Source: Mytilus edulis | Taxonomy: Eukaryota | Length of the DNA stretch: 64,000 bases | Assembly: GCF_963676685.1 (NCBI RefSeq) | Contig: NC_092347.1 | Coordinates: forward strand, 92,194,001-92,258,000 | Direction of reading: 5' to 3' | Part shown: positions 10,846 to 55,620 of the stretch, one piece after another | Numbering within the stretch: position 1 is the stretch's first letter | Layout of the letters: each line of letters opens with the position of its first letter | Made by a program: the position numbers and the translations under genes | The notes under the pieces: model-generated | Told to the model about the DNA's origin: nothing | Databases searched by the model: none | What the model saw: only the letters and a program-made list of their open reading frames with translations

Positions 10846-13800
10846 ATGTCAAGTGAATCAGTTGACAAACACTCGTTGTTGAAAGATAAAATAAAGTGTG
10901 ACCCACTTTCAGCAGACTTGCAATGGAGCTTATTTGTTGGTGCTCTTCAAAGCTACAGATTCGACACAGTGCTTCGGCCCTTCCCACCATCATTTTGTTT
11001 AGATAATGGTGAAAAGGATATCAAACGATTGGTAATTCATAATATTGAGTTTTAATACTTTTTCAAAATACCTAAGTACATGACTGGGTTTTATAATGAG
11101 ACAAAGTTATGATGGTCAGGATCTCCATGACCTGTCATATGATGGTTAAAATATCTTCCGCCACCGTCAAATGACCTACTAGTCCAAATAATTGTAACCG
11201 GAGAGCACGAATTCATTACAAAATTGCTTGTCTCCACCGAGACTCGAACCCGGGGCTTCTGTGTTACAACGCAACGCGCTAACCGACTGAGCTAAAGAAG
11301 TACTTCCTTAGCTCAACCGCTTACGGCTGACTAAGTATCTACTAAGTTTTTCTAAGGGAAGCAATCCCGTCACACTTCCCCCACCTCAAGAGTCATTATA
11401 CTCTATAATGATGATATTTTAATCTTTTTTATATTTATATTTTAACCTGGCTAGGTAATTCTTCTAACTGTGGGTTATTATTGTTGGGCGCCAATGTAAC
11501 CGGAGAGCATGAATTTCATTACAAAATTGCTTGTCTCCACCGGGACTTTTACCCGGGACCTCTGTGTTACAAGGCAGCGCGCTAACCGACTGAGCTAAAG
11601 AAGTACTTCCTTAGCTCAACCGCTTACGGCTGACTAAGTATCTACTAAGTTTTTCTAAGGGAAGCAATCCCCGTCACATAATTATGACGTCTTTGAAATT
11701 GACTTATGCAATCCACATTTCCTGTTTTAAACACGTTCAAACCAGCGAATTATGACGTCTTGAAAGGCTATTATAATTTTTTTCTTTGACGCCTTACTTC
11801 AACAGTAAGATGTCAAAGAAAAAAATTATAATAGCCTTTTAAGACGTCATAATTATTTGGACTACAAATGACCCAGGAAATTAAATCGTCAAAATATTTT
11901 TTGCCTTAAAACTTCGTCAAATGATCCGCACCATTGTCAAAATTTATTTTCGTTTCTCTAGCTGGTGCCATTTTGCTTACCAATTGCATTTGATTTCTTA
12001 GGCTTTTTGTATTGTATTATTATCACTATAAATCCAAAGGGACCTCCTTGATACAGTTGATGAAAATACAATGAACATGATGAATGGTGAAAGTTGACAC
12101 CACTTATACTCTCATTCCACCAGACAGGCTATCAAGAAACATCAACACTAATAGATACGAAGTACCATCTTGTAGGACCGAAGTGTGGAAGGAATCTTTT
12201 TACCCAAGGACGATACGAGACTGGAATGCCCTACCACATCCACTGCCACCAATGCAGGTAGTCTTGAATGCTTCAAGACTTACATGTACCTACATGAGAT
12301 GAACTAGATCAACTCCAAGATGTTTTAAATTCACTGTATATATGATGTATAGCACAAATTTTTATCAATTATTACTTATTTCTTGTCAAAATTTTAAATG
12401 CACATCCAAAAGTGGCAAAATAATCAACTTATTGATGGTGGCCACTTATTGGTAGAAGCAGTTTAAAAGCCTTGAGGAATATCTGGCTAAAGATCGCTTA
12501 TCACTTGTACAGGTAGATGTACATGATATCTGACAGGAGAACAATTGATGAAGATAGATGATTGATTGCATATTTAATTATGTTTGACATGTTTGATATA
12601 TATAATGAAAATATAGATTAGAAAATAATTTTTTATCCAGTTACAAAGATAAAAGTTTAAAATGTCAAACACATGCTTTGAAATTGACTTATGCAATCCA
12701 CATTTCCTGTTTTAAACACGTTCAAAATAAAACAAAAAACAACATAATTATACCAGTTCTTCTTATTTATATTGTATTCAATTTAACATTGTGTAAAGAA
12801 TATCAGGAAACATTAATATTGTCCAACTGCATTTTCTGACTTTTTTAGAATCACACATGAATAATTTGCTTGAATCTATTGGTTTTGATTTTCTCATCAC
12901 AAATAATCTGATTGTGTATTGGTTCACCATGCATGTTCAAGGGTTGTGATGTTTTTAAATCTTAACTTTTTTCTGCGTATTTCAATATTGCTTAAGACCA
13001 AACCTATTTCTACATTCTGCTTTGATGAACATGATGAATGTTTATTTTTTGTCTAATTTATAGGTTTGAATAAGTTATTAACAATAAGATATTTTTTATC
13101 TGAAATTATTTGAAATATTTTATTTTCTCAATAGATATTTTTTCCAAATTCAAAGTAATTTATATAATAATGAGTACTATCATGACTAGTGATAAAGTTT
13201 ATCATAAACTGTCAATATTTTCTAATGATGAAAAGTAATTAACCTTAAATTAAAATCAGTGATCATATTCTTATATTCATGAGATATGAGAGAGAAATAC
13301 ATTTTGTACTTTCATGATATTGTAGAAACTAAAACTGTATCACCAACTCTGGAAATTGGTAATTAATTTTATATATATTGTACATTTTTTTTACATGTAT
13401 TGTGTTCCAATTATACTTTTTTAGGAGCAATGTGCAGATAAAGTTACCAGTTTACAAGATGTATTGAAAAAATCTGATATTTGTGAAGAAATCCTAGACC
13501 TTGTCTCATGGGTATTAGATAAGCAGTTTCAGATACGTTCTTCACAGGATATTGGAGTAAGTTGTAAAATAAAAATAACAAATCAAATCAGACTAATATG
13601 CATTTAATACATGGATAAATTAAGGAAACAAAGAATCACTATATATATTGGGAATGTAGTATAAAGTGTTACTAGCCTGGCTTAGCCTTCTGGTATTGTC
13701 AGTTTTACTGACTGCAATAAGTTAACTGGGATGTAAGGTACAATAATAATGAACTGTATGTATTTTCTGCTTTTAATACCTAATTGTTTGCTTTGAAATC

Positions 13801-22022: not shown

Positions 22023-22875
22023 CAAAATCATTAAATTGTACTGCCTGAGTGACAGACTAATATCTCATTGACAAAATCATTAAATTGTACTGCCTGAGTG
22101 ACAGACAATATCTCATTGACAAAATCATTAAATTGTACTGCCTGAGTGACAGACTAATATCTCATTGACAAAATCATTAAATTGTACTGCCTGAGTGACA
22201 GACTAATATCTCATTAACATTAAATTGTACTGCCTGAGTGACAGACTAATATCTCATTGACATTAAATTGTACTACCTGAGTGACAGACTAATATCTCAT
22301 TGACATTAAATTGTACTACCTGAGTGACAGACTAATATCTCATTGACATTAAATTGTACTCCCTGAGTGACAGACTAATATCTCATTGACATTAAATTGT
22401 ACTACCTGAGTGACAGACTAATATCTCATTGACATTAAATTGTACTGCCTGAGTGACAGACTAATATTTCATTAACATTAAATTGTACTGCCTGAGTGAC
22501 AGACTAATATCTCATTGACAAATTCATTAAATTGTACTGCCTGAGTGACAGACTAATATCTCATTGACATTAAATTGTACTGCCTGCGTGACAGACTAAC
22601 ATCTCATCGACATTAAATTGTACTGCCTGAGTGACAGATTAATATCTCATTGACAAAATCATTAAATTGTACTGCCTGATTGACAGACTAATATCTCATT
22701 GACATTAAATTGTACTGCCTGAGTGACAGACTAATATCTCATTGACATTAAATTGTACTACCTGAGTGACAGACTAATATCTCATTGACATTTAATTGTA
22801 CTGCCTGAGTGACAGACTAATATCTCATTGACATTAAATTGTACTGCCTGAGTGACAGACTAATATCTCATTGAC
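22023..22875. repeat. Minisatellite with a 43-bp unit (49-bp variant adds CAAAAT), about 19 copies
   Basis: Unit CATTAAATTGTACTGCCTGAGTGACAGACTAATATCTCATTGA repeated head-to-tail with few substitutions and no spacers. Confidence 0.95.
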
Positions 22876-25379: not shown

Positions 25380-26350
25380 AAACAAGATTTAAACTTTTTG
25401 ACTGTTTTTTTATAATCTCATTTGAAATATTGCCCTGATTTTTTATTCATTGATGCATGAATTGCACCAGAAATTTCTCAAGTTATCTGTGATAAGGATA
25501 TCTTACTCAGTAAAAACTTTTGAATTTTCCAAATGACTTAAAAATTCTATTATATTAGGAGAAGGAGTTACTGGTTTTTTGTTCAGATTTTTAAAATATT
25601 CAGCCCACTAAGTGCTTGTTATATTTGATGATTGTTCTGGGTTTTTTTTGTCAGAATTTTTAAGGGATTCTAATAAAGTCCAATAACTTTTGGGGTTTTT
25701 CTCACGCAAGTTATCAAGTCGATCTATATGATCAGCACGGAATTGTCTATATTTAGTTTGTTTTTCTCGCTTTTCTGTATTTTTTCAGTAAAACAAGGAA
25801 TGAGGATCTAATATAAGGATCTCGGTTATATTTTTTAAAAAGCTTTTCTTTATCGCATAACTGTTTTTTTCATATTTATTAGGGGTAGGTCAAACCATTT
25901 AGACTTGACTTTTCTTTACTGTAGTAGTCGCATAACTGTTTTTTTTCATATTTATAAGGGGTAGGTCAAACCATTTAGACTTGACTTTTCTTTACTGTAG
26001 CAGTACCATTTACCTTTCATAACCCTTTTCTTGATGGAAATATTAGCTGCCTCATAAAGGATATTATTCAGATCGTGTATCATAATATTTGAGTCACCAG
26101 TATAGTTTGTGTTATTAAAAGGTTTTCTTATTTCTTTAATCAGTGGTGAAGCTAGTGCATTTTGGAATTTCTCTGCAAAATTTTCTTCCCATATATATTG
26201 GTTTGGAATAAAGTGAACATCTTTTTGCACTGCATTACATTTACAGTTAACCTTTAAACATTGTGGATACCTGGCAGTGATCAGAGAGCTAGGTTGGCTT
26301 TAAAATCATGAACCTTAAACAGTATATTACTTAAAAGACATTATCCGTAA
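25380..26350 (-). pseudogene. Degenerate L2/CR1-like LINE ORF2 fragment (end of endonuclease to pre-RT linker) nested in a Helentron-type repeat that starts near 25160
   Basis: The minus strand gives LSDHCQVSTMFK (SDH motif ending the APE endonuclease), LDNLREKNPKSYWTLLESLK, WAEYFKNLN and ISNEIIK, with stops and frameshifts. Confidence 0.6.
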
Positions 26351-29300
26351 CAGATCAAATATATTTGGTATATATAATGATAGTAATGTGAACATGTTTG
26401 TCTGGCAGGGTACATATGACCTTGACCTCATTTCATGGATTATTGGTCAATGATATTTTTCATATTTTTTTTAGTTTTTTTATTCCATAAGGAAAAGGTC
26501 AAATATACGGAATTGTCTATATTTAGTTTGTTTTTCTCGCTTTTCTGTATTTTTTCAGTAAAACAAGGAATGAGGATCTAATATAAGGATCTCGGTTATA
26601 TTTTTTAAAAAGCTTTTCTTTATCGCATAACTGTTTTTTTCATATTTATTAGGGGTAGGTCAAACCATTTAGACTTGACTTTTCTTTACTGTAGTAGTCG
26701 CATAACTGTTTTTTTTTCATATTTATAAGGGGTAGGTCAAACCATTTAGACTTGACTTTTCTTTACTGTAGCAGTACCATTTACCTTTCATAACCCTTTT
26801 CTTGATGGAAATATTAGCTGCCTCATAAAGGATATTATTCAGATCGTGTATCATAATATTTGAGTCACCAGTATAGTTTGTGTTATTAAAAGGTTTTCTT
26901 ATTTCTTTAATCAGTGGTGAAGCTAGTGCATTTTGGAATTTCTCTGCAAAATTTTCTTCCCATATATATTGGTTTGGAATAAAGTGAACATCTTTTTGCA
27001 CTGCATTACATTTACAGTTAACCTTTAAACATTGTGGATACCTGGCAGTGATCAGAGAGCTAGGTTGGCTTTAAAATCATGAACCTTAAACAGTATATTA
27101 CTTAAAAGACATTATCCGTAACAGATCAAATATATTTGGTATATATAATGATAGTAATGTGAACATGTTTGTCTGGCAGGGTACATATGACCTTGACCTC
27201 ATTTCATGGATTATTGGTCAATGATATTTTTCATATTTTTTTTAGTTTTTTTATTCCATAAGGAAAAGGTCAAATATACGGAATTGTCTATATTTAGTTT
27301 GTTTTTCTCGCTTTTCTGTATTTTTTCAGTAAAACAAGGAATGAGGATCTAATATAAGGATCTCGGTTATATTTTTTAAAAAGCTTTTCTTTATCGCATA
27401 ACTGTTTTTTTCATATTTATTAGGGGTAGGTCAAACCATTTAGACTTGACTTTTCTTTACTGTAGTAGTCGCATAACTGTTTTTTTTTCATATTTATAAG
27501 GGGTAGGTCAAACCATTTAGACTTGACTTTTCTTTACTGTAGCAGTACCATTTACCTTTCATAACCCTTTTCTTGATGGAAATATTAGCTGCCTCATAAA
27601 GGATATTATTCAGATCGTGTATCATAATATTTGAGTCACCAGTATAGTTTGTGTTATTAAAAGGTTTTCTTATTTCTTTAATCAGTGGTGAAGCTAGTGC
27701 ATTTTGGAATTTCTCTGCAAAATTTTCTTCCCATATATATTGGTTTGGAATAAAGTGAACATCTTTTTGCACTGCATTACATTTACAGTTAACCTTTAAA
27801 CATTGTGGATACCTGGCAGTGATCAGAGAGCTAGGTTGGCTTTAAAATCATGAACCTTAAACAGTATATTACTTAAAAGACATTATCCGTAACAGATCAA
27901 ATATATTTGGTATATATAATGATAGTAATGTGAACATGTTTGTCTGGCAGGGTACATATGACCTTGACCTCATTTCATGGATTATTGGTCAATGATATTT
28001 TTCATATTTTTTTTAGTTTTTTTATTCCATAAGGAAAAGGTCAAATATACGGAATTGTCTATATTTAGTTTGTTTTTCTCGCTTTTCTGTATTTTTTCAG
28101 TAAAACAAGGAATGAGGATCTAATATAAGGATCTCGGTTATATTTTTTAAAAAGCTTTTCTTTATCGCATAACTGTTTTTTTCATATTTATTAGGGGTAG
28201 GTCAAACCATTTAGACTTGACTTTTCTTTACTGTAGTAGTCGCATAACTGTTTTTTTCATATTTATAAGGGGTAGGTCAAACCATTTAGACTTGACTTTT
28301 CTTTACTGTAGCAGTACCATTTACCTTTCATAACCCTTTTCTTGATGGAAATATTAGCTGCCTCATAAAGGATATTATTCAGATCGTGTATCATAATATT
28401 TGAGTCACCAGTATAGTTTGTGTTATTAAAAGGTTTTCTTATTTCTTTAATCAGTGGTGAAGCTAGTGCATTTTGGAATTTCTCTGCAAAATTTTCTTCC
28501 CATATATATTGGTTTGGAATAAAGTGAACATCTTTTTGCACTGCATTACATTTACAGTTAACCTTTAAACATTGTGGATACCTGGCAGTGATCAGAGAGC
28601 TAGGTTGGCTTTAAAATCATGAACCTTAAACAGTATATTACTTAAAAGACATTATCCGTAACAGATCAAATATATTTGGTATATATAATGATAGTAATGT
28701 GAACATGTTTGTCTGGCAGGGTACATATGACCTTGACCTCATTTCATGGATTATTGGTCAATGATATTTTTCATATTTTTTTTAGTTTTTTTATTCCATA
28801 AGGAAAAGGTCAAATATACGGAATTGTCTATATTTAGTTTGTTTTTCTCGCTTTTCTGTATTTTTTCAGTAAAACAAGGAATGAGGATCTAATATAAGGA
28901 TCTCGGTTATATTTTTTAAAAAGCTTTTCTTTATCGCATAACTGTTTTTTTCATATTTATTAGGGGTAGGTCAAACCATTTAGACTTGACTTTTCTTTAC
29001 TGTAGTAGTCGCATAACTGTTTTTTTTTCATATTTATAAGGGGTAGGTCAAACCATTTAGACTTGACTTTTCTTTACTGTAGCAGTACCATTTACCTTTC
29101 ATAACCCTTTTCTTGATGGAAATATTAGCTGCCTCATAAAGGATATTATTCAGATCGTGTATCATAATATTTGAGTCACCAGTATAGTTTGTGTTATTAA
29201 AAGGTTTTCTTATTTCTTTAATCAGTGGTGAAGCTAGTGCATTTTGGAATTTCTCTGCAAAATTTTCTTCCCATATATATTGGTTTGGAATAAAGTGAAC

Positions 29301-29588
29301 ATCTTTTTGCACTGCATTACATTTACAGTTAACCTTTAAACATTGTGGATACCTGGCAGTGATCAGAGAGCTAGGTTGGCTTTAAAATCATGAACCTTAA
29401 ACAGTATATTACTTAAAAGACATTATCCGTAACAGATCAAATATATTTGGTATATATAATGATAGTAATGTGAAGATGTTTGTCTGGCAGGGTACATATG
29501 ACCTTGACCTCATTTCATGGATTATTGGTCAATGATATTTTTCATATTTTTTTTAGTTTTTTTATTCCATAAGGAAAAGGTCAAATAT
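25737..29588. repeat. Five near-identical tandem copies of a 769-771-bp unit
   Basis: Units start at 25737, 26507, 27278, 28049 and 28818 (ACGGAATTGTCTATATTTAG). The only differences seen are the length of one T run and one C/G change in copy 5. This explains the five identical 92-aa ORFs. Confidence 0.97.
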
Positions 29589-30564
29589 ATTTGGTATATG
29601 GAATACATGTGGGTTGAACGTAGAATTGAGAATGGAAATGGTAATGTGTCAAAGAGACAACAACCCGACCATAGAGCAGACAACACCACAAAGCCACCAA
29701 TGGGTCTTCAATGCAGCGAGGAACTCCCGCACCCAGAGAAGTCCTTCAGCTGGCCTCTAAACAAATATGTTACGAATTCAGTGATAATGGACGTCATACT
29801 AAACTCCGAATAATACACAAGAAACTAAAATTAAAAATCATACAAGACTAACAAAGGCCAGAGTCTACTGACTTGGGACAGGCGCAAAAATGCGGCTGGG
29901 TTACACATGGTTTTTTTTTAGATCTCAACCCTCCCCCTTGGCCTATACCTCAGGCCAATGTAGAAAAAACAAACGCACAACAATACGCATAGTAAAACTC
30001 AGTTGAAGAGACGCCCGTGTCCAATTTCAGAATAGGTTACAAAAGAAACTAAACAAAATGACAATAATACATAAATTAACAAAGGACTATACTAGCAGTT
30101 ACTGACATGCCAGCTCCAGACCTCAGTGAAACTGATTGAAAGATCATGGCAACATGTCTGTCTGACAAGGTTCATTTGACCTTGCCCTTATTTTCATGGT
30201 TCATTACCATCTATGTTTAGTTTGTGTGGTTTGGTCTATTTCTCATAAATGATAAGCAACTGCATGGTCAATTGTATTTGGTGTATGGAATGATTGTAAG
30301 GTGTACATGTCTGTCAGGCAGGGTTCTCTTGCCCATGTCTTCATTTTTATGTTTCATTTGTCAATGTTAAGATTTTGTGGATTGCCGCCTGTTTCTCATG
30401 TTCTATTATCGATTTGACTACTAAGTTTTGTTATTGAATGATTGTGAGGTGTATAGATGTCTGTCTGACATGGTTAATCTGACAGTGTCATTTGGTCCCT
30501 TGTGGAGAGTTGTCTTATTGGGAATCATGCCACACTCTTCTGTTTTACTTTCTATTGTAACTCA

Positions 30565-30724: not shown

Positions 30725-32710
30725 AACTCATCAGCCGTCAACTGAAAATCCTTATGAGGAGGCTCATTTGGGTATAACATCATTAGTATGATCATTCTAT
30801 ATATACAGAGACATATATTATGTCTCTGATATCACATTGTTGGGTTGATGTTTAGACGAGTTGTATATGTCTCTGATATATATATATATAAGTTGCATAT
30901 ATTAAAGAAATCTAGGGAGTACACTGTAAGGCCTCGAATGATGCATGCCGTTCCGAAGTTGCAAGACTGCCTTTGAAAAATAAGATAATGTTAGGCTAGT
31001 ACTTGAAATTCTGGGACCATGTCAGAAGGAAGTTTAGTTCAACAAATATATAATGCTACAAAAAAAGCAACACATGGGTTAAAAGGTTGAATATTATTAT
31101 GTGATAGTCGTGTTTTACGGGGGTTCCATAAACGACAAGTCTAGGGTTCTTTGACATCACTTTATTAAGTTAACATAGGAATAAATAAATAACCCTGCAA
31201 TAACAACAGCATATAGTTATTACAAATATCAATATCACAGTCTTATCAAAGTCTTATACTATAAACATATAAATATTATACTGGCGTAATAACAATGTTA
31301 CAAGATCGCATATAATATTCTATTCCGTATACAATAATCTATACTGAGTATCAAGAATGCGGTGACATTCACAATATGCAATACACTCGCAATTATATCT
31401 TTCTAAATACAAATGCATGCTTTTGATAAGTCGTATCAAATAGTATATCATTATAATCAACCAAGCGTATTATAAACAAGTCGAATGTACTGTACTTCAT
31501 AAACGAGTGTCATTCATAAAACCTTTAACATACAAAGGTTATTATCTGTTCACTATAGTATTCTTTTAATTTCGTATGCACTACTGTAATGTATAATATC
31601 TATGTAGGTACAATATAATATAATATGACCCTTACCAATCTGTGGAACCAGGTTATATATCTAACATCTACAGTACAACCAGTATGTTACAGGGACATCA
31701 TAATCTATGTGTCCTGAAAATAATACACAATAGTAAATACTAGGATCTAGGAAAATAGTGATCCCTTACATAAAATACAGCATATTAAAGACTGATATAA
31801 TAAAATCAAGCTATTACACAGAATAACCATATATGACAATATGAATGCAATTGTCAATGTGACGTCATAGATCCATAACCGAAAGGTCAAGGTCACTTTC
31901 AAAATCATTCATAAATCTCCCTTTCTACATTCAAACTACAGATTCAAATCATATATTCTCAGATTAATACATCAACTATCTTACTCCTATCATATCTAAG
32001 GTCTATGGGCATACTTACCTATAAACGGGCAGAATTGTATAGCATGCACTACATACGCCTTTCATACACCACAAAGAATATAAAATCTACTTACCAGATA
32101 TAAAGAATGTAATTTCCAATAACTACAGTTGTTCCAAAGTATGGAAACTTCAGTGAATAATAACGAGCACTGAATATAATGTTTCTATATAAGTTTTATC
32201 ACTATATACGGTTTAAACAATAAGTATATATTAAATTTGTATGTCTCCAATTTTCAAGAGTTAACCACCATTACTTTATTTCCAAAATCTGAGGTGTGTC
32301 CAGAATGACCAATAAGAACTGACCATAAAGGTAAACAAGGTGTGACAATTAATTTACTAATGAGTTGGACAGGTAGATACTATTACAACTATGCCCAATG
32401 AAGTATGACTGACTAGAACTTTCATACATTTTAAAGTGTGAAGAGATAATGAACTATAAATCAAAAGATCAAATAATCAAAGTGAAGTAATCAAGTCTAA
32501 TATCTGGCATATCATAAAATGTAAAATACTAATAAATGAAATGCGTAAAAATATACTCTGTCACATTCTCCCCCTGCTGCGAGAATGTCTTCCAAGACAT
32601 AACTGGAATCATAGTGACAATAAACAAAAATATATAACAATGATCTTCCCCCTGTGTGAGGAAAAGACGTCCTCGTCTAATACTGGACAAAACTGAAATA
32701 CAAAAATCAT

Positions 32711-33739
32711 CTAATCATCTGGCTTAGTGATCAGCTTCAACATCGCTCTAGATACTTCATCAGCCATGTTGATAAACATTCCAGAGGATGCTGCAGTCCT
32801 AAGGTAGTCAGCACGAATCATCCATTCTGGTTGTGCACTCTTGGAGACTGGTGGTACAACAAAATCCTTGTACTTGGTTGTAGCTGTTGATGTCTTAGTT
32901 CTAGTAGATCGTCTTTGCTGTGGTTCTGGTGTACTAGTATCATCATTATCTTCCTCGTCATCATCAATGTTCTCATCTTCCGTGCTATCATCATCTGTTA
33001 CATCATGTAAAGCATCTGTTGCCAAATCATGTACTTGATCATCTAGTGATGTTTCGTGCTCTGAACCTCCCGATTCCTCAGGCAAAGAAGCGTCCTCCTC
33101 TAATTCAGAATGTTCCTCGGTGCGGTCCTGATCGTCATCAGCGTTACCGGGAACAGTAGCCTCCTCCTCAACCGATGCTATTTCATCATCTGCTTGGATA
33201 ACATCATCCGGTTGAATATCTTGTTGAACTTCTTGTTGAGGCTCTTCAACCACGACATACACCATTGATTCATCCTCACTCTCTGTGTTGGAGTCTGTTG
33301 AAACTTCTACTGGAGCAGGTTTCTTCTTAGGTGATGCTGGTTTTCGTTTACTTCTTCTTGGCAAAGGAACTGGTATCTGGTGAGTTGTGTTCTCTTCCAC
33401 AAGTTCCTCGTTGATGCTTCCAATAGGTAGTAAATGGTTCCTGTGAAGCGTTCGTTTTCTTCCATGACCATTTTCTTTCCTAACTACATAGACAGGTAGT
33501 TCTGTATTAGGCTGATCGAGGATTACATATGGTTCTTCTTCCCATTTATCCTGTAACTTGTGGGTTCCATCGAAGGCAAGAATCTTCACAAGTACTCGAT
33601 CGTCTTTATGTAAAATCGCTCCTTTAACTCTGATGTCATAAGCTTGCTTCTGTTTACCCTGTGATTTTACTGCAGCTGATGATGCAAGTTCATAAGATGT
33701 CTTTAACTTCTGTCTCAGATCTTCAACATACTTCGTCAT
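32711..33739 (-). CDS. Gypsy integrase C-terminal region plus a long acidic tail (catalytic core missing)
   Basis: KQAYD...DRVLVK...KLQDKWEEEPYVIL...YVV...RTLHRNHLLP is the post-core (GPY/F-like) integrase segment. It is followed by an E/D-rich low-complexity tail and RRSTR. Confidence 0.8.
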   Translation of the reverse strand: MTKYVEDLRQKLKTSYELASSAAVKSQGKQKQAYDIRVKGAILHKDDRVLVKILAFDGTHKLQDKWEEEPYVILDQPNTELPVYVVRKENGHGRKRTLHRNHLLPIGSINEELVEENTTHQIPVPLPRRSKRKPASPKKKPAPVEVSTDSNTESEDESMVYVVVEEPQQEVQQDIQPDDVIQADDEIASVEEEATVPGNADDDQDRTEEHSELEEDASLPEESGGSEHETSLDDQVHDLATDALHDVTDDDSTEDENIDDDEEDNDDTSTPEPQQRRSTRTKTSTATTKYKDFVVPPVSKSAQPEWMIRADYLRTAASSGMFINMADEVSRAMLKLITKPDD

Positions 33740-33745
33740 ACTTTT

Positions 33746-36652
33746 CTACTGTTGAAAGGCTTTCTCCTGTTCTTTATTCCACTGCCATGGTTGTTGCTTA
33801 TGGTCTTTCTTCGGTTTCTTTCCTCTAATCTTTTTACCTGTTGTTGGCATCAAATCCGTCAAAGGACGGGCAATCTTTGAGAAGTCTTTGATGAACTTTC
33901 TGTAATAACCAACGAAGCCTAGGAATTGGCGCACTTCTTCAGGTGTTGTTGGTCTTGGCCAATTAGTGACTTTGCTGATCTTATCTGGGTCTGGCTCAAC
34001 TCCTTTCTCTGATACGATGTGACCAATGTACTTCACCTTTCGTTGAAAGAAAGAACACTTCTTTGGAGATAACTTTAAGCCAACTTCTCGGAGACGCTGG
34101 AAAACTCTCTCGAGGCGATCTAGATGTTCGTCCAAGGTTTTCGAAAAGATGATTAGATCGTCTAAGTAGATGAAACAAATTCTTGCATGTAGATCACCAA
34201 GGCATTCTTCCATCAATCGTTGATATGTAGCTGGTGAATTTGCTAACCCAAATGGCAATCGGTTGAATTCGAAGAAACCAAGTGGTCCTACTGTGAAAGC
34301 TGTTCGTTTCTTATGTTCCTCCTCTAACTCCACTTGATGATAGCCTGACTTCATATCAAGCACTGTAAATATCTTATTGCCACCTAGCGAGTCAAGGATT
34401 TCTTCAATTCTCGGAAGTGCGTAGGCATCTTTGATGGATAGATTGTTCAGTTGGCGATAATCAACGCACATGCGGAGTTTCCCATCTTTCTTCCGTACTA
34501 AGACGACGTTGGACGACCATGGTGAATGTGAACGCCTAATGATACCTGCTGACAGTAGTTGCTGAAGATGATCTCTGACTTCATCTAGCATTGACGGTGG
34601 AATTCGTCGGTGTCGTTGCTTAAATGGAGTGTTATCTGTTAAATCTATCCGGTGTTTCACTAACGACGTATAACCAATGTCTGTATCGCTCTTGGAGAAT
34701 ATATCGTTATATCGGTTTATCAATTTCTTTCCTCGTTTAAGTTCATCTGGTTTCATATCGTCTGGTATGTGTATATCCTTGAGAATATCTATCTGATTGT
34801 TGTCATCTGGTTTTACTTGTTCTGTTGTTATGGTTACTGGTTGAAGTTCACATAAAAGAGATCTAGGTGCAACGGTTACGGTTCTTGTAGAAATGTTCGA
34901 AATGTGAACTGGAATATCATCTCGTTGATTCTGGTCGTATGTGATTATAGCTTGTACAATATCTAGGTCGTAAGGTATTACTGAGTTTGAAGTTGCATGA
35001 AGCATGGAAACGGTGGATGGATACGGTAACATCTTGTCCATATAGCCTTTGATAACTACTTCTGTGTTAGGTTGTATGATAATCGGCTTTGTTTCTGCTG
35101 ATTTCACCAGTGCTAAACGGTTATGTTGTCTTTCAAGTTCTTTCTCTCTTAATGTCATACATCTGAAGGCTAAATAGTATGGTGTTATCAGAGTAGCATC
35201 TTGTAGAAAACGTGTACCATGTTCTTGTTTGATGTCTTTCATAACTTCAGATAAGATGTTTGTTCCGATAAGTAGTGGTACTTCTTGATGATATTCGCTA
35301 TCGGGTATGATGAGAAATAAACCAGGTTGTATCTTGTTATCATTTGCTCCTTGAAGTTGCAAATCAGCTTCAATGTATCCCTTGTAAGGTAAACGTTGTC
35401 CATCGGCGCATTCTATTTTCAAAAGAAAACTGAGTGACTGTAATGGTGTAGAATAAAGATGTTGATTGTAAAAACTTTCGCTTATTGTTGATACAGTTGA
35501 ACCTGTGTCGAGAAGTGCTGTTGTGTTAATTCCATTAACAGTAATAGGAACTTCATTTGATGAACCAAGTAATCCTGATATAGGTGATTTCTGTTCAGTT
35601 TGTTGTGTTGATTGTTTCATGATGAATGATTGTTGGAGGTTCAGAGCACGCTGTGTCTTTCTTGAATGATCAAGTCGTACAGTGCAGTCTATAGAGTAGT
35701 GTCCTGGCTGTCTGCATCGCCAACATGTGAAATCATTCTGTTTGCGTCTTCTATGTTGTTCTACTGGTCTATATATAGTTGTTTCATCTGGATGATATGG
35801 TGTCCATGATGTATCTCTTCGTGACCATTGAATGTTAGTAGATGGTTGGTCACAATTTCTATCTTCCTTCAAAGCCTTGACATCTTGTGAGAGTTGTTTC
35901 ACCAATGCTGTAAGTTGCTGAATTTGCCTATTTTCTACTGTTGTTGTCGTTGATTTACTCGTAGCCTGTGTAGGTGGTTTCTTTTTCAAAGATGGTTTGA
36001 GGTTATGTTGATTCTCTATTTCTCTTGTAGCTTTCAGTAATGAGTGAAAATCGGTGATGGTATCTTTCTTGTAGCGGACAATATTCTTCATCTCCGGTCT
36101 TAATCCATCAAAGAACTTTGACGTAAGCATATCGTTGATGTTTTCCTCTGTGACATTCTTTCTGTTCTTGGCTTTGCTTAGTATTTCCTCTAATCGACAA
36201 GCCCATGTTGCAACGTCTTCATCATCTTGCTGTCTAGCCGTGTAGAATTGGCCAAGTAAAGCTTCAGGCTGATCAACAGATCCGTATATACTGTCCATCT
36301 TATCAATGATGTCGTCAATGGTTGCTTCAGGACCAAGTCTCATGGGAACCTTGCTAGCATCTCCACGTAGAGAACGTCTAATAGCCATCGTGATGGTTTC
36401 ATGTGTATGTCCTGTCTTGATGAGACACTGTACCTCATATCTCCATAGGTCGTATGGTGTACCAGTCTTCACATCTCCGGAAAACGCTGATATCCGCGGT
36501 AAATAGGCATTACATAAATCATCATCAGTTTCTTTGTAATCTTCCATCCAGGTCTTAAAATCATCTGGTGTCTGAGCGCATGGTTTGAGATCCATCTCCT
36601 TGAAGGCCATAACTATGTTGCTGATCTCATCCTTAGATAGATAATCCGACAT
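33746..36652 (-). CDS. Gypsy Gag-protease-reverse transcriptase polyprotein, truncated before RNase H
   Basis: PNMA-like Gag, zinc knuckle CWRCRQPGHYSIDC, aspartic protease LLDTGS, RT motifs LRMCVDYRQLN, LPFGLANSPATYQR and YLDD. It ends in the connection domain at WNKEQEKAFQQ*. Confidence 0.93.
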   Translation of the reverse strand: MSDYLSKDEISNIVMAFKEMDLKPCAQTPDDFKTWMEDYKETDDDLCNAYLPRISAFSGDVKTGTPYDLWRYEVQCLIKTGHTHETITMAIRRSLRGDASKVPMRLGPEATIDDIIDKMDSIYGSVDQPEALLGQFYTARQQDDEDVATWACRLEEILSKAKNRKNVTEENINDMLTSKFFDGLRPEMKNIVRYKKDTITDFHSLLKATREIENQHNLKPSLKKKPPTQATSKSTTTTVENRQIQQLTALVKQLSQDVKALKEDRNCDQPSTNIQWSRRDTSWTPYHPDETTIYRPVEQHRRRKQNDFTCWRCRQPGHYSIDCTVRLDHSRKTQRALNLQQSFIMKQSTQQTEQKSPISGLLGSSNEVPITVNGINTTALLDTGSTVSTISESFYNQHLYSTPLQSLSFLLKIECADGQRLPYKGYIEADLQLQGANDNKIQPGLFLIIPDSEYHQEVPLLIGTNILSEVMKDIKQEHGTRFLQDATLITPYYLAFRCMTLREKELERQHNRLALVKSAETKPIIIQPNTEVVIKGYMDKMLPYPSTVSMLHATSNSVIPYDLDIVQAIITYDQNQRDDIPVHISNISTRTVTVAPRSLLCELQPVTITTEQVKPDDNNQIDILKDIHIPDDMKPDELKRGKKLINRYNDIFSKSDTDIGYTSLVKHRIDLTDNTPFKQRHRRIPPSMLDEVRDHLQQLLSAGIIRRSHSPWSSNVVLVRKKDGKLRMCVDYRQLNNLSIKDAYALPRIEEILDSLGGNKIFTVLDMKSGYHQVELEEEHKKRTAFTVGPLGFFEFNRLPFGLANSPATYQRLMEECLGDLHARICFIYLDDLIIFSKTLDEHLDRLERVFQRLREVGLKLSPKKCSFFQRKVKYIGHIVSEKGVEPDPDKISKVTNWPRPTTPEEVRQFLGFVGYYRKFIKDFSKIARPLTDLMPTTGKKIRGKKPKKDHKQQPWQWNKEQEKAFQQ

Positions 36653-39600
36653 GGCTGTACAAAATAATAATACCTAAACTGTAAAAATAAAATGCTGAGA
36701 TGAAATCTGAAATAAACAAAAGCTTCTGAAACAAAGAAATGTTAAGTTCCTAAAAGAAAAAAATATGTCTGAAATGAATACCAATATATACCAAAAGTTA
36801 ATGCTAAAACAAAAAAAAAATGTTAAGTACCTACAATAGAAACAAAGTATCTGAAATAAAAAAATATATGAATAATATTAATTTATCCTAAAATACAAAG
36901 AAATTATCTGGAATAAATTAAATAAACAAAAAGTTTTTAAGTACCTATAACAAAAATAAAGATTCTGAAATCAAATAGAGAAAAAAATAAGATTAAGTAC
37001 CTGAAAACTAAAAGAAAACAATAAGATTAGTATCTGCAGTCTAATGTCTAATCTACAATAAAGATAGAATTAATGCAAATCCAAATATGATACAATATAA
37101 TCTGGAAATCTCAAAGAAATATCCTGTAAAAAAAAAAAAGATTAGTAACTCTATGGTCTGAAATCAAAATTATGATTAAGTATCAACAAACTCGACAACA
37201 GTGCCTAAATAAATATAGAGTGATATAATACTGGACTGAAATGACCAACTCCTCTGAAATAAACAGACTAGATGGTAAATGCAACTCTGCAATGGTAAAT
37301 CAATATACTGAAATCAAAATTCTGATTACTATATGTATACACAAAAATGGATCTGAGAAAACACTATATATAAGTATAATGTACACAGTGGCTAACAATA
37401 CCTCACAACTGAAAAGCAATGAGTATGTATAATAAAAACAAATATGAATAGTATCAATATACACGTACGTACCTTTTTTAAAGTTCCTACCCAGCTATGT
37501 CTCTGCAAATCACACACACCTAATACTCACCAAAATGTGTGCAATTTATTCCTTACTGAGTATGACTAGCTGCTACATATAATCAAAATATATGTAACTA
37601 TATAGGGGAATATATATAATACAATGTAATGTAAAGTAGAAACTGGTACTGCTGCTGCTGTAAATAATATCAATATATCATCAATGAAATCGCTGAAAGT
37701 CCTGAAACTTAAAATGTATTAAAGAATCAGTCAGTCAACAACAAGAACCGAAGCAACAGATCTACCTATACAACACAATGTAGACACCTATCAAGTACCT
37801 CAATAACCAGAACCTTATCAATCAAACAACACGTATACTTACTTAACTATGTATACTTCTAGTTCTTCAATGAGCTTTATACCTACTTCTTCAAATGTAC
37901 AAATTACTCCAGTCGGTTTCTTTCTGTACTTATATTCCTCACTTACCCTCAAATTTTTTGTAGGTGAATATCTACGACAGCAAAGTTCTGTGGAACTTTA
38001 CGAGTAAAAGAGTATTTGTCGTGTCTCTAGTCTTTGCAATAATCCTAACTGACAGATGTGGGGATTGGGCAGTTATGAATCTATTTAATATGTACAGAAT
38101 AATATGCAAATATCAACACAATATATATGTATTTACAAAGTCAAATATAATATATCAATTACAAACAGTAGCAACTGTTTATTCTTCTACCTATGTGTCA
38201 CACTTTAAATTCTAATGTAAATTAACTAACTGTAAAAGAGTTCGAAAGCTAATTATATAATCAAATTCTGAATGAAAGTTTAAAGTAATTTCAACAAAAA
38301 TTTACAACAAAAATTTAAATCCAAATACAGCTAATATGTCTGAAATAATTTCAAATAATTTCCGAAAAAAAATCAAAGAAATTTATTTAAAAAAAAAATT
38401 AAGTGACACAACAAAATGTGTATTACAAGTCAAGTACAAATAAACAAATACATTCAATGTCAATCAACTAATGAGTATATATCAAAAGTTTTACTAAATG
38501 ATGTTTATTTATAAAGTCAAAACACACACAGTGTATAAATACAACTCAGTTTAATAGTAACATCTATAGTCAATCGGTAATCTCTGAAGTGTATCGACAT
38601 CTACGGGTATCGTGTATTGCCAAAATACGATCAATTCTTCATAATCTACATTATCCACCAAAAACGTCTGATCTACCAGAAAAACTACGTTGGGCGCCAT
38701 TGTGATAGTCGTGTTTTACGGGGGTTCCATAAACGACAAGTCTAGGGTTCTTTGACATCACTTTATTAAGTTAACATAGGAATAAATAAATAACCCTGCA
38801 ATAACAACAGCATATAGTTATTACAATTATCAATATCACAGTCTTATCAAAGTCTTATACTATAAACATATAAATATTATACTGGCGTAATAACAATGTT
38901 ACAAGATCGCATATAATATTCTATTCCGTATACAATAATCTATACTGAGTATCAAGAATGCGGTGACATTCACAATATGCAATACACTCGCAATTATATC
39001 TTTCTAAATACAAATGCATGCTTTTGATAAGTCGTATCAAATAGTATATCATTATAATCAACCAAGCGTATTATAAACAAGTCGAATGTACTGTACTTCA
39101 TAAACGAGTGTCATTCATAAAACCTTTAACATACAAAGGTTATTATCTGTTCACTATAGTATTCTTTTAATTTCGTATGCACTACTGTAATGTATAATAT
39201 CTATGTAGGTACAATATAATATAATATGACCCTTACCAATCTGTGGAACCAGGTTATATATCTAACATCTACAGTACAACCAGTATGTTACAGGGACATC
39301 ATAATCTATGTGTCCTGAAAATAATACACAATAGTAAATACTAGGATCTAGGAAAATAGTGATCCCTTACATAAAATACAGCATATTAAAGACTGATATA
39401 ATAAAATCAAGCTATTACACAGAATAACCATATATGACAATATGAATGCAATTGTCAATGTGACGTCATAGATCCATAACCGAAAGGTCAAGGTCACTTT
39501 CAAAATCATTCATAAATCTCCCTTTCTACATTCAAACTACAGATTCAAATCATATATTCTCAGATTAATACATCAACTATCTTACTCCTATCATATCTAA

Positions 39601-40495
39601 GGTCTATGGGCATACTTACCTATAAACGGGCAGAATTGTATAGCATGCACTGCATACGCCTTTCATACACCACAAAGAATATAAAATCTACTTACCAGAT
39701 ATAAAGAATGTAATTTCCAATAACTACAGTTGTTCCAAAGTATGGAAACTTCAGTGAATAATAACGAGCACTGAATATAATGTTTCTATATAAGTTTTAT
39801 CACTATATACGGTTTAAACAATAAGTATATATTAAATTTGTATGTCTCCAATTTTCAAGAGTTAACCACCATTACTTTATTTCCAAAATCTGAGGTGTGT
39901 CCAGAATGACCAATAAGAACTGACCATAAAGGTAAACAAGGTGTGACAATTAATTTACTAATGAGTTGGACAGGTAGATACTATTACAACTATGCCCAAT
40001 GAAGTATGACTGACTAGAACTTTCATACATTTTAAAGTGTGAAGAGATAATGAACTATAAATCAAAAGATCAAATAATCAAAGTGAAGTAATTAAGTCTA
40101 ATATCTGGCATATCATAAAATGTAAAATACTAATAAATGAAATGCGTAAAAATATACTCTGTCACAATTATTCAAAATTTAGGTTTATCATATTAGTCAA
40201 AAAATATATGTAGGACATTCGTTCTGAATATACATGAAATATTTGCCACTGGACTTTAATTAAGCAAACCAACTGTAGGACATAGTCTTGATTAGCTGAC
40301 ATTTAAGGTAGCGCCTTCCTCATACTATTATCATTTATACATTTCTCGTTTTTGCTATTTATTTTGCCACTGACAACGGGTAAAAAAGACAGCATGATTT
40401 TAAAAAAAATTATCAGTGTTGCGACATTACAATAGAAATCTACACTTTACACTAGTTTAAATACGAAACTAAACTTACAGCTCTGTATTTCAAAG

Positions 40496-48746
<8,251 letters not shown>

Positions 48747-51374: not shown

Positions 51375-54300
51375 TTAGTTAAATATTACATGTAAAGGAG
51401 ACCAAAATTTTTCACAGACTTGGACTTTATCATTTTTCTTTGCAATATGATTTTCAAGAAATTGGTATTTCTTTATTTTATTCTTTAACTCGATCATATT
51501 TGGTTTTGTTTCATTTAATTTACATTTATATATATAATTCTTTGTAATTATGATTAGCAGATTCAATAATAAACTTTCATGTTTGCAACCCAGAAACACA
51601 TTCTCTTTGTTGAGATCAAAATTTACAAAAAAAAGTTTCACAATATTGAAAAAAGACTGCCACAATTGAAAAGTTATTGGGCATTCAAAAAACAGGTGTT
51701 CAATGGTTTCTTCTCCAAGTTTACAAAAAGTGCATAACTTGGTATCTTTTAATTTGATTTTGTACAAAAAGGTATTCGTTGCTATAATTCTATGCAAAAA
51801 TTTATATTGAAAGGTTCTTAAATAAGCATCTCTACAAGACTTTTTTGTTATCATGAAATACTCTGACCATTCTGTAGTATCAATAACTAACAGCTCTGCC
51901 CATTTCAAAAATTTAATTGTTGGTAGTTGAATAACTTCATCTACTAAGTTTTTGTATACAAATTTGGCTTTCACATTACACCTGATTTTTTTTAAGAAAG
52001 TATCACCAGTGTTAGACTTATCTAAATCTTGATTTAGACAGTTATCTTTAAGGCATTTTTTCATAGCTTTAGGGATTTTTGATATCAAACCATAATATTT
52101 AATAAAATTGTTGGTTTGTACTTTTTCTTGAAATTGCTCAAATTTATAAAAAATCATATTTTCACGATTAATAAGGTCACTTACTGACTGCACACCCCCC
52201 TTTTCCCATTGAATGTAATATGGGAAATCATCCAAAGAAGAAAAGTTCAAAATATCTAAGGATAAAATGTCACTGACAGAAATCTCAGTAATAGGTTTTG
52301 CAGCGGAAAAGCATAGTAAAACATCCTTCCAGAAAGAATTTTTACATCTTTTAGCAATCTCAATCAGCTTTTCTTTCTGAAGATTTAAAACCCTTTCACC
52401 CCCATACTTCATAAGGTCTGCCAGTAACAACTGCTGCCAGCCACCGCTAGGGTTTGCCAGCAGTCTTTTTATCCAACTAATTTTCAAATAGATATTAAAT
52501 GAATGAAGATGTACCATATTAAGTCCACCTTGTGAAATATTACCAACAAGTGTGTTTCGCTTAATTCTGTCTGGTTTTCCATTCCATATGAAATCATAAA
52601 ATAATGAAGTGAGCTCTGTTAACCTGGAGTGTGATAGGTTTGGTAATGCAGTCAATAAATGGACCAACTTTGAAAGAGCAAGTGATTTAATTACTGTAAT
52701 TTTTCCTAATAATGTGAGTTTTCGATGTTGCCAGCTCTTCAAAATTGCAGAGACCTCTTTAATTTTCTTAGCAAAATTAATTTCTGTGATACAGCTTAAA
52801 TCTAAAGAAAATTCAATCCCCAAAAGTTTAAAATTTGAATGTGACCAATGAAGTTTTAAGTCTGGACATAAAATAAGATCAGAATATTTTTTACTTCCAA
52901 CCCATAGTGCTTTTGTCTTTGAAGCATTTATTTTCAAACCTGAAATTTTATAAAAAGATTCAAAACATGAAAGTGTTTCCCTCAACGATATTTCCCTTCC
53001 ATCTAACATAAGGAATGTGTCATCTGCGTACATGCTTAAAAGTGATTCATCATCATTGATAGTAATTCCCCTTATGTCAGGATTACCTTTTAATTTCAAA
53101 GATAATAATTCAACCCCAATTATAAATAAATAGGGAGATAGAGGATCTCCTTGTCTGCAACCTCTTTCTAAATGAAAAAACTTAGACATGTGTCCATTAT
53201 TTATAACACAACTTGATGCCCCTGAGTATAAAGTTTCAAACCATCTACATAAAGAAGGCCCAAAATTAAAGCTTTTCAAAGTATTTTTTAAAAATAACCA
53301 TTCCAAGGAATCAAATGCCTTTTCAAAATCAACAAGTAATAAAAGACCTGTCTTATTATTTTCCTCAAGATAGTGCATCAAATCATATAAAAGGCGTGTG
53401 TTCTCACCCATAAATCTGTCTTTAATAAAACCTTTTTGTGTGTCACTTATGATAAATGGTAAAATGGGTTTAAGTCTATTAGCTATAACAGCAGAAGCTA
53501 TTTTCATATCAGTATTCAAAAGACTAATAGGACGCCAGTTACTAATATACTGTCTGTCTTTTCCCTCTTTAGGAATGCAAGTTATTATACTTTGATACTG
53601 AAAATCAGAAAATTTACCCCCCGCATATCCAAAGTGAAGAGATCGAAAGACAAAAGGGCCAATATCTTTCCAAAAAAATTTATAAAAATCTACAGAATAC
53701 CCATCAGAACCAGGACTTTTACCATTTGTCATAAATTTTAAAGATTCAGCACATTCTTTAAAAGTTAAATTTCCTTCACAAAGATCACTTTGTTCTTCTG
53801 TAAGCTTAATGTTATGATTAAAAAATGATGTATCATTGCAATCTAATTTTTTGCTTGAATAAAAATTTTGTTGTTCCATCAGAATTTGTGATTGCTCTGA
53901 AATATGCTGACCTTTATCATCAATAAGTTCTGTTATGGTTTTCTTAATAAAATTTTTCTTTTCTAATTTACAAAAATAATTTGTACACTTTTCACCATTC
54001 TCATGCCAGTTAGCTCGGGATCTAAGCAGCAAGCCTTCAACTTTCTTTTGTCTACAATTTTCTAGTTCAAGTTTTTTTTCAAATAAAGATTTTTGAACCT
54101 CATCATTTGGAGAATGATTCATAATACTTTCAAAATTTAAAATATCATTTTCAAGTTTGAGAGTGACATTTTTTTCCTCTCTGGATTTATTAATGCTGTA
54201 ATTTATTGACAAGGATCTAATCTTCATTTTTAATATTTCAAAAAATGTTTGATCATTACATGACAACTCAACAGAAAGAAGATTTTCCATATCACCTGAC

Positions 54301-55135
54301 AGATGGTATTCCAAAATAGTATCATTAATACATGATTTAACCATTTTTATATAATCTGCATCTCTAAGTAACTGAGAGTTAAATTTCCAATAACTTTTGC
54401 CCCGTTTCTCTAAACAAGCTGAGAAGGTGAAAAGAATTGCCGAATGGTCTGTTCTATAACCAGGAATGATAATGGTATTCTTCATAAGTGGAAAAAGGTC
54501 TTCTGAAATTAAAAAATAATCAAGGCGACTTTGTTTTATTGGTGAGGACTGACGCCAGGTATATTTCCTATCTTCTGGATAGCATGTACGCCAAGGATCA
54601 AGTAGTTCAAAAACATCAATGATTTCATCAATTTTTTACGGGAGTTAGGGTTTCTATTATGTTTGATATTATATGTATCCATAAATTTATCTAATACAAC
54701 ATTCCAGTCACCACATAGTAAAACACTGGTGTTTTTAAAGATTAAAATATTCTGCATTATTGTGTCAAAGAATGAAGGTTCATCTGTATTATAACCATAC
54801 AAACATGCAAGACTTAATCTTTGTGAAAAAATTGTTATATCTAAAATAATGTAACGACCATTATCATCAATAATAGAATTATGCACAACAAAATCCAGAC
54901 CCTTTTTAAACATAACAGAGACACCTGCACTTTTACTGTCTTTATGACTGAAAAAGCACTTATTTCCCCATTCATCCTCCCAGTATTTTTCAATGTCTTT
55001 ATTGCTATGAGTTTCCTGAAAACACACTATGGAAGTATTTTTACTCCTAGCCCAATCAAAAACATCTGCCCTCTTTTTGGAGTTTGAAAAAAGACCCCTC
55101 ACATTCATTGATAATATCGTTACATTATTATCCAT
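51375..55135 (-). CDS. LINE ORF2 (APE endonuclease + reverse transcriptase + C-terminal zinc finger) split by one frameshift at about 54632-54637
   Basis: SMNVRGL, FQETH, CGDWN, SRLDYFL and TDHSA (endonuclease), GKSPGSDG, NWRPISLLN, DFEKAFD, RGCRQGDPLSP and YADD (RT), CTFC...HLFFEC. Adding one A to the A6 run joins ORFs 54536-55135 and 51375-54485 into about 1253 aa. Confidence 0.9.
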
Positions 55136-55620
55136 GATTATATCTGAAGGGATGATTTATAAAACATATAAGCAAGTTCATAAGTACAAATATACAATTG
55201 TAACACATAAGACATACACAAACATACACACATACAAACATAAGATGTCGCATATTATTTTCTTCATTCAACATAGAATGTATAAACTAATTTACAGTAT
55301 GGCATTATATAGTTATGAATAAATCTAGCAAAGGAATAGATGTTTTAAGGGGAGATAAGATTATATTAATTTCATAATAAATGTTAGAGTTATTTCCCCT
55401 ATACTCTATAGTGACAGTATAATTTATATTAATAAAAAAAAATAATAAAAAAATCTCTTATACTATTTACTATATATGTATCCAGGATTTTGTAATTTGG
55501 AGTTGACATGACACACTTCAGTATTTATCTTTCACATTTATATCTATCTATTTATACTGATAAAAACTGTACATTTTCCAAAAAATATTAACAAGTGTAA
55601 CAGACTTATATGAAAACTAA

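Follow-up and report, generated by a model that had tools for sequence, protein, structure and literature searches.

A catalogued Helenus element of Mytilus edulis with a sharp family RNA end and a covarying palindrome at its likely transcription start

The 486-bp element at 11193..11678 is, by sequence comparison, a member of an already catalogued family, Helenus-1/1B_MyGa of Mytilus galloprovincialis, and not a new one. (Coordinates refer to the window, the whole stretch of 64,000 nucleotides that was analysed.) With good confidence, we read it as a copy of this family that is likely transcribed by Pol III from a single G 12 nt before the A box, and whose helper in trans is likely one of several Gypsy families primed by tRNA-Lys. 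The element itself adds nothing to the catalogue; what the literature searched does not contain are the start-site reads and the covarying palindrome. The published description of Helenus called Pol III function unvalidated, carried no transcript data and left the Mytilus helper unnamed (PMC10886601). An RNA end confined to one base, spaced from the A box as expected, now offers a testable start for that use of Pol III. The palindrome supplies a concrete model of how a Pol III RNA could start and stop in two identical LTRs and undergo strand transfer, and it is a character by which single and multiple origins of animal Helenus might be told apart.

Layout, identity and dispersal of the element

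The original prediction placed here a 486-bp element with two LTRs, a PBS, a PPT and a 4-bp TSD, each LTR carrying tRNA-like A and B boxes, with mutations in the B box of the 5′ LTR but not of the 3′ LTR. All of this was recovered, on the minus strand:

11193..11678, minus strand: Helenus-1/1B_MyGa-type TRIM, 486 bp, from its layout and a by-eye match to Data S1 of PMC10886601
11495..11678, minus strand: 5′ LTR, 184 nt, TGTGAC...GGTTACA
11375..11494, minus strand: internal part, 120 nt
11193..11374, minus strand: 3′ LTR, 182 nt
11679..11682, minus strand: TSD ATTA, 4 bp, 5′ side
11189..11192, minus strand: TSD ATTA, 4 bp, 3′ side
11483..11493, minus strand: PBS TGGCGCCCAAC, beginning one base past the 5′ LTR
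11375..11387, minus strand: polypurine tract
11586..11597, minus strand: A box of the 5′ LTR
11544..11553, minus strand: B box of the 5′ LTR, with three bases altered in the window copy
11283..11294, minus strand: A box of the 3′ LTR
11241..11250, minus strand: intact B box of the 3′ LTR
11523..11526, minus strand: T4 run of the 5′ LTR, over which read depth does not drop
11583..11626, minus strand: 44-nt imperfect palindrome of the 5′ LTR, across the putative U3/R border
11600..11609, minus strand: perfect 10-nt palindrome core GAAGTACTTC of the 5′ LTR
11280..11323, minus strand: palindrome of the 3′ LTR
11609, minus strand: sharp end of the family RNA reads, likely +1 (G) in the presumed read direction

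Both LTRs have TG...CA ends and share the A box TAGCTCAGTCGG, but the B box that is intact in the 3′ LTR reads GGTAAAAGTC in the 5′ LTR. The two LTRs differ by nine substitutions and two one-base indels (4.9% divergence). With its damaged 5′ B box and this degree of divergence, the window copy is probably old and silent. The insertion lies in an arm of a small inverted-repeat element. The flanks of the TRIM, less one ATTA, equal the opposite arm at 24/24 bases, which fixes the TSD independently and argues against coincidence.

The inverted repeat at the insertion site is a partial copy (11180-11192 and 11679-11693) of a ~120-bp, MITE-like hairpin that also lies at 11748-11864, where its 51-nt arms are 94% complementary. 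This hairpin is a dispersed repeat (the best 40 of 889 candidates were scored), and all Rfam miRNA matches to the region fell far below cut-off. The window further holds five tandem units of ~771 bp at 25737-29589 (99.7-99.9% identical), a LINE-type endonuclease and RT in two overlapping frames on the minus strand at 51375-55156, and tandem arrays at 2069-2724 (period 168), 22029-22875 (period 43) and 45717-46625 (period 46).

Helenus (TRIMp3) was defined as a group of TRIMs with tRNA-derived LTRs (Kojima 2024, Biology 13:119; PMC10886601). Its animal members have 4-bp TSDs and probable Gypsy helpers, and the origin of the LTRs by SINE insertion is Kojima's proposal (PMC10886601). By eye, the 5′ LTR of the window copy agrees with Helenus-1_MyGa-LTR at 178/184 positions, the 3′ LTR at 176/183, and the internal part with Helenus-1B_MyGa-I at 117/120, for an overall identity of 96-97% (Data S1, PMC10886601). 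The published LTR, internal and total lengths are 183/125/491 and 182/120/484 bp, with 4-bp TSDs (Table S1, PMC10886601). In keeping with the group, the window element is non-coding and 486 bp long, with two LTRs, a 120-nt internal part, a PPT, promoter boxes, a 4-bp TSD and a PBS that is complementary to a tRNA 3′ end and common to four LTR families. The original prediction named Helenus as a class that might already be known; the class was right, and the caution was excessive, as the family itself is published.

Copies of the family are dispersed through the 1.37-Gb genome. With the best 40 of 563 candidates scored, 46 matches were found, 42 of which span at least 420 of the 486 bases at 89-100% identity. 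The 14-nt LTR end has 295 exact genome matches against one for a control, a count that pools the Helenus-1 family with a relative. The 30 best loci were surveyed for TSDs, less one belonging to the same tandem array as another. An exact 4-bp TSD was present at 19/29 insertions, compared with 3/812 cross-pairings, and at 18/23 insertions with both termini intact. One tandem array of three LTRs among these loci carries a TSD of its own, and four solo LTRs with TSDs were clear by eye among 30 loci. The A box is intact in 58/60 LTRs and the B box in 55/60. LTR pairs range from identical to ~6% apart, pointing to insertions of mixed age, some of them recent. Two Helenus-1 copies (L088 and L010) are rearranged as inversions that break at the palindrome or the LTR end, and relatives of Helenus-2 and Helenus-3_MyGa also occur in this genome.

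Neither outcome that the original prediction named as refuting it was found: other genomic copies have the LTR-PBS-PPT-LTR layout with TSDs, and the A and B boxes are conserved. Tandem SINE duplication by chance, or a pair of tRNA genes, would likewise put tRNA-like boxes into both repeats. Such an origin is refuted by the TSDs and the copy survey, and we regard it as almost certainly wrong given the TG...CA ends, the PBS and PPT, the fixed 4-bp TSDs, the solo LTRs and the lack of a tRNA call. A SINE2 would have a 5′ tRNA head, a 3′ tail, TSDs of variable length and no LTRs; this assignment was also set aside, since here TG...CA LTRs enclose the cassette and the element has a PBS, a PPT and a fixed 4-bp TSD.

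The cassette in the LTR is tRNA-like rather than a tRNA. ARAGORN with default settings made no tRNA call in the window or in 60 loci, relaxed calls on the cassette have an 8-nt anticodon loop, and Rfam tRNA scores (20.8 and 18.9 bits) lie below the cut-off of 29. A functional tRNA gene was therefore rejected on the default ARAGORN and Rfam results. What stands of the predicted cassette is a tRNA-derived type-2 promoter with conserved A and B boxes. A 13-nt stretch at the A box is the only part equal to the genome's tRNA-Lys(CTT), a match too common for assigning an isotype to the ancestral tRNA, and the TGT loop is insufficient for a tRNA-Thr label.

RNA of the family and the palindrome at its start

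Four raw RNA-seq runs (X21-X24) were mapped on the 5′ LTR and internal part. X21-X23 are stranded runs of one study and X24 belongs to another; they derive from other individuals, perhaps of another species, and are evidence on the family rather than on the window copy. X21-X23 gave 641, 2116 and 1540 mapped reads, or 74-256 per million. Among molecules at 11609, 207/259, 842/990 and 678/791 ended on that very base (80-86%), and in these reads the adapter directly adjoins it. From this base to the first T of the A box is 12 nt, a spacing within the range for type-2 Pol III genes. The strand ratio in X21-X23 was ~100:1 in one direction, with first mates on the plus strand, and in most stranded libraries first mates placed in this way correspond to RNA in the element's sense. 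With libraries of this usual kind the RNA would be sense, making 11609 its 5′ G. X24 contributed 58 reads (4.6 per million), which run the other way and show no end at 11609.

More than 99% of the reads have an intact B box, and the 5′ B-box variant of the window copy is nearly absent. Many reads derive from a sister subfamily whose internal part differs and resembles Helenus-1_MyCo by eye; with it go loose read ends at 11483 (206, 920 and 979 reads). Read depth is steady over the T4 of the 5′ LTR, indicating read-through, and in each run 36-86 reads span the boundary between the internal part and U3. Depth within U3 is flat. With a threshold of 15%, neither the 5′ arm nor the T-loop showed ADAR-type or m1A58 signatures.

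From these data, 11609 is likely the transcription start of the family RNA, on the strength of one study and a presumed library direction. Short reads cannot name the polymerase, and we infer Pol III from the spacing to the A box. The base before 11609 is a G and Pol III usually starts after a pyrimidine, which counts against a Pol III start at this position. The predicted Pol III transcription gains some support from the sharp end in X21-X23; X24 shows no such end. The same reads could instead record a cut, or a stop in library preparation, at a hairpin within a longer Pol II read-through RNA, the boxes being a relic. That 11609 lies inside a potential 22-bp stem, that the sharp end comes from a single study, and that about one-tenth of the depth continues into U3, so that a longer RNA over the site exists, all fit this account. 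However, a polymerase that stalled on the stem should do so at its foot (11583 or 11626) and not 5 nt from its axis, strand-changing joints are not listed in the reads, and the boxes are kept in 58/60 and 55/60 LTRs, as well as across families. RNase P, moreover, would presumably cut at the equivalent of tRNA +1, 11604, and not at 11609. We therefore give a cut or stop little credence and retain 11609 as the likely start.

The likely start at 11609 falls within the palindrome: it is the first base of the perfect 10-nt core, and the A box makes up the right arm. Pairing was counted over six copies, two from each of three Helenus families of the same genome. Across these, 97% of 132 cells are paired, compared with 27-54% in slid controls. 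Four of the 22 pairs have changed on both sides, including two at the axis; taken alone, and with only three families, such double changes were equalled in 44/500 shuffles. G-U pairs occur in nine columns and A-C in none, which suggests pairing in the sense RNA and would not be predicted for a palindrome acting at the DNA level. In one diverged LTR (L065) the palindrome is broken in the fixed register.

With a start inside the palindrome, only the 3′ LTR would supply a transcript of the left arm, and the initial 23 nt of the RNA are predicted to pair with the end of U3 to form a panhandle. Should Pol III terminate in the T-run that follows the 3′ LTR palindrome, the product would be a ~316-nt RNA whose terminal repeat (R) measures only 10-13 nt, with flush paired ends and three unpaired U, an arrangement of ends seen in many Pol III RNAs. 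For RNA run to the LTR end, the 5′ end is predicted to pair with the U3 of the 3′ LTR (z -4.4), and minimum-energy and centroid folds both prefer this end-to-end pairing. For RNA cut at the T-run after the palindrome, the same pairing is predicted in 11/11 two-LTR copies of three families. The z-scores stem largely from the palindrome itself. End pairing would hold donor and acceptor together for first strand transfer, and by analogy with Ty1 cyclisation this is the most likely service of the palindrome, dimerisation being the main rival.

The Pol III start could be correct and the palindrome nevertheless act as a local stem-loop of the 3′ LTR, which dimerises RNAs in the manner of HIV-1 DIS or Ty1 PAL or aids termination, with the RNA ending at the later T4. 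Self-complementarity persists as far as the axis, where both members of a pair have changed, much as in the dimer-initiation loops treated in the available part of PMC3592414, and a T4 does follow the tRNA-like part. Nonetheless, full-LTR RNA keeps the end-to-end pairing in both kinds of fold. The end-to-end form needs no loop and so pairs up to the axis as well, and the T4 of the 5′ LTR is read through. On balance the stem-loop seems rather unlikely, and the panhandle remains the preferred reading.

The palindrome extends well beyond mussels. In the available part of Data S1 (PMC10886601), inspected by eye and neither aligned nor scored, the arrangement is present in 53/72 bivalve, vertebrate and nemertean families: 33/51 bivalve families (including all 11 mytilid ones), 17/18 vertebrate and 3/3 nemertean. 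Judged in the same way, it is missing from the families with a retained tRNA acceptor arm (18 bivalve, 3 brachiopod), and from the ctenophore family and the wasp LTRs inspected; fungal and many wasp families fall outside this tally. The words hairpin, palindrom and inverted have no match in the main text of PMC10886601. The literature searched, whose coverage excludes subscription journals and Repbase reports, yielded no report of Helenus transcripts or of the palindrome.

We propose tentatively, with slightly more doubt than conviction, that most animal Helenus, and perhaps Ajax, form one old lineage in which the tRNA acceptor arm was swapped for a palindrome across the Pol III start. A single stretch of DNA would start transcription in the 5′ LTR and, in the 3′ LTR, provide both the closing arm and the stop. 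The RNA would be a closed panhandle of ~300-400 nt with a terminal repeat of 10-13 nt. This lineage would take in mussels, oysters, scallops, ribbon worms, coelacanth, sturgeon, carps and zebrafish, where LTR-11_DR has thousands of copies (PMC10886601). If true, a single lineage argues against independent molluscan and fish origins of Helenus, and the panhandle would be a compact way to copy a Pol III RNA by the LTR route. By eye, and in the available part of Data S1, the LTRs of Ajax-1_NGe and Ajax-1_LiLo share with nemertean Helenus families a short palindrome, a T-run and a tRNA-type A-box-like motif, here placed before the 5S piece; Ajax may derive from palindrome-type Helenus.

Candidate helpers among tRNA-Lys-primed Gypsy families

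Priming by tRNA-Lys, as predicted, is supported by the 11 PBS bases of the TRIM that are complementary to the genome's own tRNA-Lys(CTT); the complementarity is 13 nt in the Gypsy element of the window. Twenty tRNA-Lys(CTT) genes form a tandem array with a period of 1122 bp at 20.50 Mb of contig C3 in the same genome (G000; L109-L112), where they alternate with tRNA-Arg(TCG) on the opposite strand. The original prediction named as autonomous partner the Gypsy element 20 kb away:

31100..40166, minus strand: Gypsy-type element with gag, protease and RT, 1466-bp LTRs, TSD TAAT and a Lys PBS

This element does share with the TRIM the PBS, the terminus TGTGAC, a G-rich PPT and a 4-bp TSD, and with LTRs that are 99.8% identical it is a young insertion. 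However, no Pfam match to RNase H or an integrase core was found in it, and its RT runs straight into the apparent tail of the integrase region. Sister copies hold 1497 extra bp at this point, with RNase H and integrase domains. The loss is flanked by a 7-base overlap, and the same deletion junction is in no other copy among 41 matches. Lacking this stretch, the element either moved in trans or was broken after insertion, and its status as an autonomous element was rejected. Chromosomal nearness is, in any case, uninformative on mobilisation in trans.

An exact search with the PBS returned 16 places in four LTR families. There are at least four Lys-primed LTR families, three of which encode RT, RNase H and integrase in a single frame and have near-identical LTR pairs; the stretches of family C that were examined hold no frame of 250 aa. 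In the Lys-primed family comprising L046, L049-L051 and L102, the LTRs measure 1294 bp (99.7% identity between those of one copy) and the part examined shows no long frame; this family is possibly a large non-autonomous element.

The TRIM helper is likely one of the Lys-primed Gypsy families, and the termini of the TRIM were compared with those of clean copies (L089, L091 and L107 had cut or over-extended LTR ends, and L103 lay within other repeats). At the 5′ end the TRIM matches the family of the window Gypsy over 6 nt, compared with 5, 4 and 3 for the others, and 8 of the first 12 bases agree. At the 3′ terminus, by contrast, two other Lys-primed families match over 5 nt and the window family over 3, and the LTR-end/PBS junction is shared over 17 nt with these two against 11 nt with the window family. 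The two better-matching families also share the spacer base of the TRIM and have complete pol frames and young copies. BLAST of the TRIM against the window Gypsy and 20 stretches (10 copies of four Lys-primed families) returned the LTR-end/PBS junction only. In the 60 nt before the 3′ LTR no family rose above control, 86-251 of 300 controls being equally high. Helenus-3 has the TRIM's 3′ terminus and PBS but starts with TGTAGC, so the 5′ hexamer is not fixed.

Thus, comparison of termini and PBS with the Gypsy families, as originally proposed, confirms a common Lys PBS and does not single out the window family. Nor does the nearby copy hold up as autonomous partner, lacking RNase H and integrase while two families match the LTR-end/PBS junction better. 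The family that it represents might still be the specific helper: it has the longest 5′ terminal match of the four, the same PBS and a 4-bp TSD, its LTRs (99.4-99.9% identical) indicate recent activity, and its sisters carry RT, RNase H and integrase in one frame. The shorter 3′ match, the spacer base, complete frames and young copies of the two competing families, the control-level signal before the 3′ LTR and the variable 5′ hexamer make this specific assignment doubtful. We prefer the broader reading of one helper among several Lys-primed Gypsy families.

Comparison with known systems

The closest known system is Helenus-1/1B_MyGa itself, which the window copy resembles in sequence, lengths, 4-bp TSD, tRNA-Lys PBS and A and B boxes. 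The one difference is a mosaic, an LTR nearer to Helenus-1_MyGa joined to the 120-nt internal part of Helenus-1B_MyGa. The PBS of Helenus-1 had been assigned to tRNA-Lys(CTT) (Fig. S2), and a Gypsy helper and Pol III use had both been proposed for Helenus (PMC10886601). Another bivalve TRIM, biv-TRIM (Satovic 2019), likewise occurs in solo and tandem forms. As described in the available part of PMC6934838, however, it has no canonical PBS, its hairpin lies in the internal part and a tRNA-derived LTR is not described.

End-to-end pairing has a counterpart in Ty1, where, according to the available part of PMC3592414, the CYC5/CYC3 pairing is required for reverse transcription and palindromes near the 5′ end (PAL) were proposed to serve dimerisation. 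Ty1 is, in contrast, an autonomous Copia-type element transcribed by Pol II, and its CYC5 adjoins the PBS rather than +1 (PMC3592414, same part). Its sequence is unrelated to that of the TRIM.

Cassandra of plants offers the nearest parallel in promoter use. The available parts of PMC10886601, PMC7215508 and PMC10853983 describe a Pol III promoter in the LTR, a start in the 5′ LTR, a stop in the 3′ LTR and a short R, given as 18 nt in PMC10886601 and close to the 10-13 nt predicted for Helenus-1. Its promoter, unlike that of Helenus, is of type 1 and 5S-derived. Tandem arrays and a modelled LTR-to-LTR 'super-hairpin' complete the likeness; as far as the available parts of PMC7215508 and PMC10853983 go, the latter models the element as a whole, unlike the short covarying palindrome that surrounds the likely start in Helenus. 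With this modelled hairpin, end pairing in a Pol III TRIM has a precedent, and Cassandra may itself hold a hairpin that matches the Helenus palindrome.
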